UHGV virus genome: UHGV-0068509
Strand: one strand, 5' to 3'
DNA from: a virus
DNA: 31,722 nucleotides
Shown piece by piece: positions 16,179 to 17,810 of the stretch. The position numbers and the translations under genes were made by a program. The notes under the pieces are model-generated. The model was given only the letters and a program-made list of their open reading frames with translations, made no database searches and was not told the DNA's origin. Numbering within the stretch: the first letter of the stretch is position 1; each line of letters starts with the position of its first letter.

Positions 16179-16370
16179 TCACTTAATTGTCATTTCAGGT
16201 CGTTGGCTCTTCATGCTTTCAATCAATGACTGCTTCAGCAATTCGAGTGTGCCAATCGCCTCACATACACTGATTTCACCATAATCATGGATGACGCTTT
16301 CCAGCCTCTCGTATAGCTCTTGAGTAATTGGGAATTTCTTCTCCTTACCCAAATTGATTACGCGGCTCAC
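16179..16370 (-). CDS. Small hypothetical protein (63 aa), GTG start, translationally coupled to the upstream ORF
   Basis: GGAG 6 nt upstream of GTG; start overlaps the TGA of the 80-aa ORF; helical acidic protein. Confidence 0.5.
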
Positions 16371-16371
16371 A

Positions 16372-16614
16372 TCATGCTCCGGTAGTGAACAGGTCTAACG
16401 CTTCCTTCGATTTACGCACCGCTTCAAATGTGCGGATCGTGATATCCGAATTAGCGCCGCCTGACTGGAAGTGAATTTTGAATAGCTCAAGCTTCAGTTC
16501 GTCAGTGCCAATGAACTGAAATGCTTCTTCTGCGGCTGCGTTCTGGTTCATGACCAGTTTGTAAATCTCTAACTGGAATTTCTGTTCTTCAGTCATGGGA
16601 ATAATCTCTGCCAT
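16372..16614 (-). CDS. Small hypothetical protein (80 aa)
   Basis: ATG with GGAG about 7 nt upstream; MAEIIPMTEEQKFQLEIYKLV... Confidence 0.55.
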   Translation of the reverse strand: MAEIIPMTEEQKFQLEIYKLVMNQNAAAEEAFQFIGTDELKLELFKIHFQSGGANSDITIRTFEAVRKSKEALDLFTTGA

Positions 16615-16716
16615 TGTTGGCTCCGTTTATCCGTTAAAAGGGATATCAGTTAAGTTATCCCGTGTAGGGTATAAGCCATTATCAAAGCCACTCTGCAAGG
16701 AATGGCTTTTGTGATG

Positions 16717-16744
16717 GCAATAAAAAGCCACACATATGCGTGGC
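16717..16744 (-). terminator. Putative intrinsic terminator immediately 3' of the protease gene
   Basis: Minus-strand hairpin GCCAC-GCATATGT-GTGGC followed by TTTTTATT. Confidence 0.45.
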
Positions 16745-16777
16745 CATATCATGTATAAAATCTTATACAACGAATGT

Positions 16778-17518
16778 TTATTTCGTAGGGAAAGATGTGA
16801 TCACATCAACGATGGGCTGGATTGAAAATCCAATACCAATTCCGGAGTTAGCATTCAGCGACATCATGTCCGAAACAATCTGTAGCGATCTACCAAACAT
16901 GTCCGCCATTTGCCCGAAATTAACACCCATGATCTCAACACTTCCATGCAGACTTGCTGAAGAAAGATATTGTCGCAGTTGGGCTATTTCTTGGCTGAAA
17001 GCATCAGCCTGATCGCCCATTATATATCTACGCTGGGTGACGATACCTACTAACTCTCCCGAATCTCGATCAATAATAGGTCCTCCTGAGTTCCCCCCAT
17101 TAACCATTCCATCAAGCGTAAATCGGCCATGCTCCATCGGTGCTGAAATAATTGCCTCACTTGTTAGTAACAGAGGTATCCCATGCGGGTATCCTGCAAA
17201 AATTACTTTTCTGCCCCTGGATGGAGCAAACCCAGCAGATGGTTGAAGGACTGTTCTTCCGCCAGGAAGGGGGGATTGCAATTGCATGATAGCAAAGTCG
17301 TTACTACCATCAACATGCAAAATTTTAGCGTCGATACTCTCATTTGCTTCAGTTTGAAGAATGACGTCATTGATTTGACACTCGGTTTGTAAGTCACAAC
17401 AGGTGGCCACAACATGCAAGTTAGTTACAACTAGGTTTTCTCGCATGAAACTGAACCCGCTACCACGAGACTTACCTGCAATGACCTGAAATGTTGCGTT
17501 GGCTAAGTTTTGATGCAT
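16778..17518 (-). CDS. Trypsin-like (S1/HtrA-type fold) serine protease, cytoplasmic, no PDZ domain
   Basis: 246-aa ORF with strong RBS GGAGGA; catalytic motifs in canonical order His (VVTNLHVV), Asp (DFAIMQL), Ser (GNSGGP); no N-terminal signal peptide; about 75-aa C-terminal tail ending GIGIGFSIQPIVDVI. Confidence 0.85.
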   Translation of the reverse strand: MHQNLANATFQVIAGKSRGSGFSFMRENLVVTNLHVVATCCDLQTECQINDVILQTEANESIDAKILHVDGSNDFAIMQLQSPLPGGRTVLQPSAGFAPSRGRKVIFAGYPHGIPLLLTSEAIISAPMEHGRFTLDGMVNGGNSGGPIIDRDSGELVGIVTQRRYIMGDQADAFSQEIAQLRQYLSSASLHGSVEIMGVNFGQMADMFGRSLQIVSDMMSLNANSGIGIGFSIQPIVDVITSFPTK

Positions 17519-17630
17519 TGAAATCCTCCGATTCTGGTTAGTGGAATTTCATAATGAACTCATTTCCCAGAATAATTGATATATCACATCAATTCACGCC
17601 CGGAATATTCAATACACCAATTGGCCCGTA

Positions 17631-17810
17631 TCATTTTTGAGCTGTCTGTAACTTGAGATCAAGCGTGTATGATTCACCTTCAATGTTGCTTTTAACAACT
17701 ACCAGCTCTAGCACATCGCCTTCCTTAGGTATTTCATTTTCCACAAACCAGTTCTTAGCTTCTGAGATGGAGTTAACAACCGAGATAAAACCACGGTCTT
17801 CTTTTTTCAT
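17631..17810 (-). CDS. Small ORF (59 aa) upstream of the protease, below the ORF-track length cutoff
   Basis: Hand-translated: [65 protein letters not shown] about 10 nt upstream of the ATG. Confidence 0.4.

Follow-up and report, generated by a model that had tools for sequence, protein, structure and literature searches.

A discrete prophage cassette with a stand-alone HtrA-like protease between the lysis genes and terS of virus genome UHGV-0068509, a candidate module of phage conflict

Proteases of bacterial immunity have mainly been described as sensor-fused domains that activate a nuclease or a gasdermin, or as rare stand-alone enzymes such as Lit. Lit, which is carried by the e14 prophage, is a latent metalloprotease that is activated by the Gol peptide of T4 and cleaves EF-Tu; IetS is a subtilisin-like serine protease. 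Lambdoid phages additionally carry morons, i.e., units of promoter, gene, and terminator such as bor and lom of lambda. Among the systems that contain serine proteases, retron type XI fuses the protease to a reverse transcriptase (RT) (PMC7736814), trypsin-MBL systems use a sensor-fused protease to activate an adjacent MBL pro-nuclease (PMC12799240; bioRxiv 10.1101/2025.09.03.673762), and IetAS combines the serine-protease toxin IetS with an AAA-ATPase antitoxin, the protease activity being needed for the anti-phage function (PMC13069673). The present study examined a gene for a trypsin-like protease of 246 amino acids (aa) in the virus genome UHGV-0068509 of a P22-like phage, a stretch of 31,722 nucleotides (nt) hereafter called the window, which an earlier note made from the sequence had placed at the centre of an accessory module between the lysis genes and terS. 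We found that window 16694-18009 is a self-contained, discrete cargo cassette at this junction and that it is probably a weapon in phage-host or phage-phage conflict.

All coordinates given here are positions in the window, and the cassette and its neighbouring genes all lie on the minus strand. A blastn comparison with the P22-like phage Kapi1 matched window 16167-16693 to positions 2501-3031 of the Kapi1 locus and window 18010-18306 to positions 3041-3337; since these two flanks are separated by only 9 bp in Kapi1, the limits of the insert are 16694 and 18009, and 1316 bp have replaced 9 bp. The protease is likewise missing from the same junction in P22, Sf6, and HK620 (megablast/blastn), so that the comparison proposed in the earlier note confirmed an insertion at the Rz-to-terS junction. 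G+C content within the insert is 0.39-0.46, against ~0.50 in the flanks. In order, the cassette is composed of part of a foreign o-spanin gene (17842-17958), a 59-aa open reading frame (ORF59, 17631-17810), a 112-nt spacer (17519-17630), the protease gene (16778-17518), and an intrinsic terminator (16721-16745). The spanin fragment is a 38-aa ORF that matches positions 53-76 of 81 in phrog_1275, 'Rz-like spanin' (E 8e-5). In the Citrobacter and Leclercia loci, ORF59 is preceded by intact o-spanin genes of 65 aa, and the fragment aligns with their 3' end. As the window phage possesses its own full Rz/Rz1 at 18776-19246, the foreign fragment marks the scar of an acquisition from a phage in which the cassette sat right behind the spanins, with ORF59 only ~40 nt after the spanin genes; the source was another lambdoid phage, and the transfer proceeded by recombination. 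The terminator was recovered by a terminator scan as an 8-bp stem (16745-16726), a loop, and a T-run, as the earlier note had described it. Of the 11 ORF59-type loci, 10 have a hairpin with a T-run behind the protease gene, and both the stem sequences and the downstream genes vary among them; that the terminator is kept with differing stems implies a transcription that is not Q-antiterminated.

The assignment of the 246-aa ORF to the S1 proteases with a complete catalytic triad was upheld. Pfam Trypsin_2 matched it at 73.8 bits (E 3e-20; cut-off 27.6), and the residues H35 (in VVTNLHVV; codon 17416-17414), D74 (in NDFAIMQL; 17299-17297), and S144 (in GNSGGP; 17089-17087) do not vary among 34 homologs with identities as low as 40%. 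The AlphaFold2 (AF2) model, with a mean pLDDT of 85.5, has the two-beta-barrel fold, and the best Foldseek matches of the whole chain were the protease domains of DegS-deltaPDZ and HtrA1 (E ~1e-12, probability 1.00). Foldseek against viral structures returned merely generic trypsin folds, and a profile search of PDB sequences retrieved HtrA/Deg proteases (E 9e-15) with matches up to residue ~165. The portion beyond that point had been described as an unassigned C-terminal tail of ~75 aa, a description that did not survive modelling: from the helices at 168-190 and 201-222 the chain continues into a strand (227-232) and a terminal helix (234-241), and residues 222-231 (NANSGIGIGF) are invariant and constitute the last beta-strand of the protease domain. 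A separate C-terminal domain was therefore ruled out. As modelled, the enzyme is a complete HtrA-like protease domain in which the short L2 loop is replaced by a helical hairpin of ~55 aa (residues ~165-221; 16856-17026), inserted between the strand after the catalytic Ser and the NANSGIGIGF strand. This hairpin is the least confident part of the AF2 model (pLDDT 65-76) and the most variable part of the protein, with 35-53% identity between cassette alleles as compared with 67-72% in the core.

The protease is probably cytoplasmic and active, as predicted from its sequence. A Pfam search found no PDZ domain, the chain stops 15 residues beyond the last protease strand, and the N-terminus, MHQNLANATFQV, contains no hydrophobic segment and is part of the modelled fold, a dedicated signal-peptide predictor not having been used; the absence of a signal peptide and of a PDZ domain thus stood as the earlier note had it, as did the strong ribosome-binding site, a GGAGG Shine-Dalgarno sequence 6 nt ahead of the ATG. 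Six residues ahead of the catalytic Ser, where chymotrypsin numbering places a lining residue of the S1 pocket, the protease has the hydrophobic Met138, which by analogy with HtrA suggests a preference for aliphatic P1 residues.

Set against the described systems, the protease combines a familiar core with an unusual setting. With HtrA, DegS, and DegP (MEROPS S1C) it shares the chymotrypsin fold, the His-Asp-Ser order, GNSGGP, and the GIGF-type last strand; unlike them, it has neither signal peptide nor membrane anchor nor PDZ domain, carries the L2 hairpin, is cytoplasmic by prediction and prophage-borne, and scores far below the NCBIfam cut-offs, where HtrA/MarP models matched at sub-threshold level only (TIGR02037, 48 bits vs 416; DegS, 23 vs 423). 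The best PADLOC matches were RT-Protease_XI (2e-15), Avs1b (2.8e-5), and LmuA (1.6e-4), with PDC-M35A also matched. The retron match covers positions 345-503 of a 506-position profile and ends at about residue 184 of the protease, short of the hairpin and the last strand. Retron XI, LmuA of Lamassu, Avs1, and the Hachiman effectors resemble the cassette in having a cytoplasmic trypsin-like domain, which in those systems is a regulated effector, but the cassette protease has no fused sensor (RT, STAND NTPase, or helicase) and, with no RT in the cassette, stands alone where that of retron XI does not. Unlike the trypsin-MBL systems, the Hachiman module included, the cassette lacks an MBL pro-nuclease gene and holds ORF59 and the protease only. 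IetAS is likewise a two-gene module with a serine protease, but IetS belongs to another serine-protease family, its partner is an ATPase rather than a 59-aa protein, and there was no PADLOC sequence match. Lit is similar in being a single latent protease of a lambdoid prophage element that acts as an abortive-infection effector, as proposed here for the cassette, and differs in being a zinc metalloprotease of another catalytic class and fold; by this analogy, a Lit-like mechanism is the most likely one for the cassette. The earlier note had matched the protease to no named system, and neither did PADLOC, NCBIfam, or the literature; our literature searches yielded no description of the cassette, although it may already be listed (e.g., in Brenes & Laub 2025 on E. 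coli prophage defence).

ORF59 is, judging from its conservation, a real gene. Its 25 homologs, each of ~59 aa, occur exclusively in Enterobacteriaceae, are 57-93% identical, and have dN/dS values of 0.13-0.22, and both ORF59 and the protease gene are under purifying selection. Searches of ORF59 against Pfam, PHROG, and PADLOC gave zero matches; its AF2 model (pLDDT 83) consists of a short helix and a beta-hairpin, for which Foldseek against the PDB returned nothing below E 0.7. The spacer between the two genes is also constrained, as indicated by its fixed length (111-113 nt in all 11 loci examined) and by a conservation above that of the synonymous sites of ORF59 (60-73% identical and free of internal indels, as compared with ~35-45%). 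It has a minimum free energy (MFE) of -35.6 kcal/mol (z -2.7), and the predicted structure contains a long-range helix, the 5' arm of which (17609-17620) begins 10 nt past the ORF59 stop and pairs with a 3' arm (17510-17521) comprising the protease start codon (17518-17516), codons 2-3, and 2 nt of codon 4. This helix is retained in the consensus fold of 11 sequences, its positions are paired in 94% of instances across 9 distinct sequences as compared with 14-41% in slid-partner controls, and in the MFE fold of the window itself the Shine-Dalgarno sequence (17529-17525) is paired too. The helix probably occludes the start codon of the protease, and translation of ORF59 would relieve the occlusion. 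The inverted repeat that the earlier note had pointed out between the two genes is present as AATTGAT-N7-ATCAATT (17574-17594) and was followed by inspection and allele alignment: in the first allele set its arms were largely kept with G-U-compatible changes around a variable loop, the 3' arm was altered in four added alleles (three clearly), and the hairpin dropped out of the 11-sequence consensus fold. An Rfam scan of 15600-19300 gave zero matches.

The cassette is mobile. The unit of ORF59, spacer, and protease was found in prophages of E. coli, Citrobacter, and Leclercia, at the junction between the lysis and packaging genes, where it accompanies at least five packaging/head types across the three genera. 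In E. coli B7A and CFSAN061770 it resides in P22-like prophages, and in another E. coli prophage it is found with DUF1441/GpA and a ClpP-capsid fusion; Citrobacter lambda-like prophages carry it with Nu1/GpA/S49 or DUF1441/GpA/ClpP genes. It was also found in additional prophages of Citrobacter, Leclercia, and E. coli; packaging genes could be read in two of these, which have HNH, TerL, and portal genes, one of them with an S78 protease. The association of one cassette with so many packaging and head modules, some of which have their own S49, ClpP, or S78 protease, rules out a role in virion assembly or as a prohead protease, in agreement with the earlier note, which knew of no morphogenetic role for the enzyme; the cassette is moreover located upstream of terS, outside the head module. 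The lysis genes that accompany it also vary, as the cassette was seen with several unrelated holin/endolysin/spanin sets. This variety counts against the possibility that the protease is a lytic helper outside any conflict, serving lysis timing, the processing of non-structural phage proteins, or the recycling of host proteins. A constant place right after the lysis cassette and the late-gene orientation would suit such a helper, but most close relatives of these phages manage without the cassette, which is rare and dispensable, and homologs are found outside phages, and we consider this explanation very improbable.

The rarity is apparent from the database surveys: 21 of 5,426 complete E. coli genomes have at least 80% of the cassette, and 50,697 phage records contained no close homolog of the protease, the best being 33% identical. 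A plasmid search found no enterobacterial copies; a 36%-identical homolog is located on a haloarchaeal plasmid, and the archaeal and Roseobacter plasmid contexts of homologs were uninformative. The alleles that were recovered are mosaic, with a diverged 5' block and a nearly identical 3' block. Between the window and the alleles of E. coli CFSAN061770 and KH_005, a recombination breakpoint falls within the protease gene at about codon 86 (17255-17265), with a dS of 0.44-0.68 upstream and 0.009-0.018 downstream. The window and E. coli B7A, the cassette of which is 98.8% identical, differ at 10 nt over both ORFs, all of them nonsynonymous (9 aa changes, 0 synonymous), a comparison of small numbers to be read beside the dN/dS of ~0.15-0.2 in older allele pairs; the pattern could be recent diversification or unpurged polymorphism. 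Disrupted copies of the cassette also occur, with truncated protease products of 155-158 aa, one on a 205-kb contig, and in one genome an IS3-family transposase is annotated under a partial cassette match; such copies may point to a fitness cost.

Beyond the cassette, a full-database profile search yielded 58 clusters (50% identity) with E < 1e-30, nearly all of 235-255 aa and matched end-to-end, together with a sister tier made up of proteins of 255-270 aa. In Limnohabitans, Acidithiobacillus, Geopsychrobacter, Agarivorans, Lysinibacillus, Pirellulales, Anaerolineae, and Deferribacteraceae, homologs of 34-50% identity are encoded by stand-alone genes, so that the distant members span Proteobacteria, Firmicutes, Planctomycetes, Chloroflexi, and Deferribacteres. 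These genes are often near integrases or recombinases (integrase fragments beside rnr, a serine recombinase, IS110), and other neighbours include a ThsB-like TIR protein, a leucine-rich repeat (LRR) protein, and an HNH/REase-like nuclease. Among 100 neighbour ORFs from 11 loci, a handful matched PADLOC (HNH/REase, mad1/mad2, NYN, ThsB, CARF, PD-T7-4), and the defence-like surroundings lean weakly toward an immune role. In Geopsychrobacter electrodiphilus, the homolog lies among roughly a dozen Pfam-less ORFs that share one orientation and are separated by spacers of ~30-400 nt, along with an IS110 transposase; this may be an integron-like cassette array. The marine homologs of Photobacterium and Agarivorans are extended at the C-terminus by a segment that contains the zinc-binding SEC-C motif (PF02810), the sole recurrent domain fusion in the core family.

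Given the conserved terminator, the cargo-like rarity and mobility, the immune-type relatives, the island-like contexts of homologs, and the fast-evolving insert in the activation loop, we tentatively favour the reading of the cassette as a prophage defence or exclusion effector, i.e., a latent conflict protease. Under the proposed mechanism, ORF59 would be made first, and synthesis of the protease would depend on translation of ORF59 via the start-codon helix, a gated order that is the layout expected where a dangerous enzyme must be preceded or outnumbered by a regulator or inhibitor. The L2 hairpin would keep the protease latent or set its trigger. Infection by a competing phage, or induction, would then switch on the protease, which would cleave a host or phage protein so that the competitor is aborted or excluded.

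Several observations weigh against the defence/exclusion reading. PADLOC provides similarity at the domain level only, with no known defence system matched, and its matches among the neighbours of the homologs came from some of the 11 loci and were counted without a background rate. Covariation in the long-range helix was not significant, as its 3' arm is coding and nearly invariant. The remaining points concern expression and the pairing of the two genes and are given together with two rival explanations.

The first of these concerns expression. No sigma-70 consensus was found on the coding strand upstream of ORF59, nor any convincing promoter in the spacer, and seven aligned alleles upstream of ORF59 shared no conserved promoter-like motif; in all alleles, ORF59 comes straight after the late lysis genes and shares their strand. 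With no promoter detected and a position among the late genes, the cassette may be expressed late in the lytic cycle and not in the lysogen. The moron-like layout proposed in the earlier note accordingly stands in part: like morons, the cassette is discrete between conserved late genes, has a lower G+C content and its own terminator, and is missing from close relatives, but unlike them it has no promoter match, follows the orientation of the late operon, and abuts the spanins in the donor arrangement. Its upstream neighbour, moreover, has an anti-defence flavour, being a 187-aa Tad2-like gene (18225-18788) with a C-terminal Thoeris anti-defence 2-like domain (DUF2829; PF11195, E 1.4e-26). The late position, the lack of a detected promoter, and the hint of an anti-defence islet all favour counter-defence, in which a late-lytic protease, co-transcribed with the lysis genes in a Q-dependent manner, cleaves host immune sensors or effectors; in a variant, it might act on satellite or competitor proteins. 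Many immune sensors and effectors respond to terminase, portal, or capsid proteins, and the genes for these proteins lie just downstream of the cassette. The fast-evolving insert could equally track host targets. Counter-defence is a close rival of the defence/exclusion reading, and we hold it to be rather unlikely: a Q-antiterminated transcript has no use for a terminator that is maintained through compensating stem changes, the homologs are not phage genes but stand alone on chromosomes or islands in many phyla, the cassette is missing from the 50,697 phage records, and the protease core is nearest to immune effector domains.

The second concerns the pairing of ORF59 with the protease. The ORF59 alleles are shuffled relative to the protease alleles, with ORF59 proteins of 88% identity standing beside proteases of 53-68% identity, which makes a specific pairing of inhibitor and enzyme less likely. 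In addition, a Pantoea prophage carries a protease that is 75% identical at the same junction, the closest outside E. coli among the fetched loci, without ORF59. The place of ORF59 is there taken by an unrelated 74-aa ORF, which was ruled out as an ORF59 homolog (hhalign probability 0.2%). These results bear as well on toxin-antitoxin-like addiction, in which the protease would be the toxin, ORF59 a labile antitoxin, and defence a by-product. The order of small gene and enzyme at fixed spacing, the possible translational coupling, the inverted repeat as a candidate operator, and the occurrence of disrupted copies are compatible with addiction, for which IetS provides the precedent of a serine-protease toxin (PMC13069673). 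The alleles of the two genes do not co-vary, however, no promoter was found, ORF59 has no known antitoxin fold, and neither the Pantoea copy nor any distant homolog comes with ORF59, so the enzyme is tolerated without it; addiction is improbable on these grounds.

The genes downstream of the cassette belong to the phage backbone. The earlier note had correctly recorded two small ORFs after the protease, with stop and start 1 nt apart, and had cast them as possible partners of the enzyme. The 80-aa ORF (16372-16614) is a DUF2560 protein (PF10834, 2.6e-42) homologous to P22 orf80 and equal to HK620 hkbM, and it is kept in P22, Sf6, HK620, and Kapi1, all of which are without the protease; the 63-aa ORF (16179-16370) belongs to phrog_3546 (1.7e-38) and falls under P22 orf59c and HK620 hkbN in the megablast matches, and the two together fall under Sf6 genes 66-68. 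As P22-family backbone genes found in protease-less phages, both lie outside the cassette and were ruled out as partners. The 63-aa ORF is followed by terS of the gp3 family (15683-16177).

On the upstream side, the Tad2-like gene lies directly next to the cassette and has a homolog in Kapi1 (Kapi1_043); its product could be an anti-Thoeris sponge of the late region, as predicted from the domain match. A hairpin, AGCCCA...TGGGCT, follows its stop codon. Between this gene and the insert, ~200 nt (18010-18215) are apparently non-coding and 93-99% identical in 175 phage records, and in the match of phage L the depositors annotate a terminator and a hypothetical protein. Farther upstream, genes for tRNA-Thr and tRNA-Asn (20189-20344) are flanked by those for the Q antiterminator (20408-20926) and the holin, and the same tRNA pair is found in Kapi1. 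In related prophages, the region of the junction (~13000-21000; 16600-18250) has annotated Rha, KilA-N, HNH endonuclease, GIY-YIG nuclease, DUF2829, and IS elements.

The cassette is so far undescribed; it is not a demonstrated new system but lends itself well to experiment. It is possible, if doubtful, that the L2-hairpin proteases form a widely scattered new family of single-protein sensor-effectors with the insert as the trigger gate, and that the prophage form, with ORF59 and a translational gate at the RNA level, is a new protease-only system of abortive infection or exclusion, or else the first phage serine protease that destroys host immune proteins. The analysis provides exact boundaries, a catalytic residue (S144), a candidate regulatory RNA helix, a series of natural alleles, and a naturally occurring version without ORF59, and it identifies a cargo hotspot at the junction between the lysis genes and terS in P22-like and lambda-like prophages. 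Where the proteases of bacterial immunity are mainly sensor-fused domains, a compact, mobile 1.3-kb unit in which the sole enzyme is a free cytoplasmic HtrA-type protease would offer a clean test case of how a protease by itself could sense and act.

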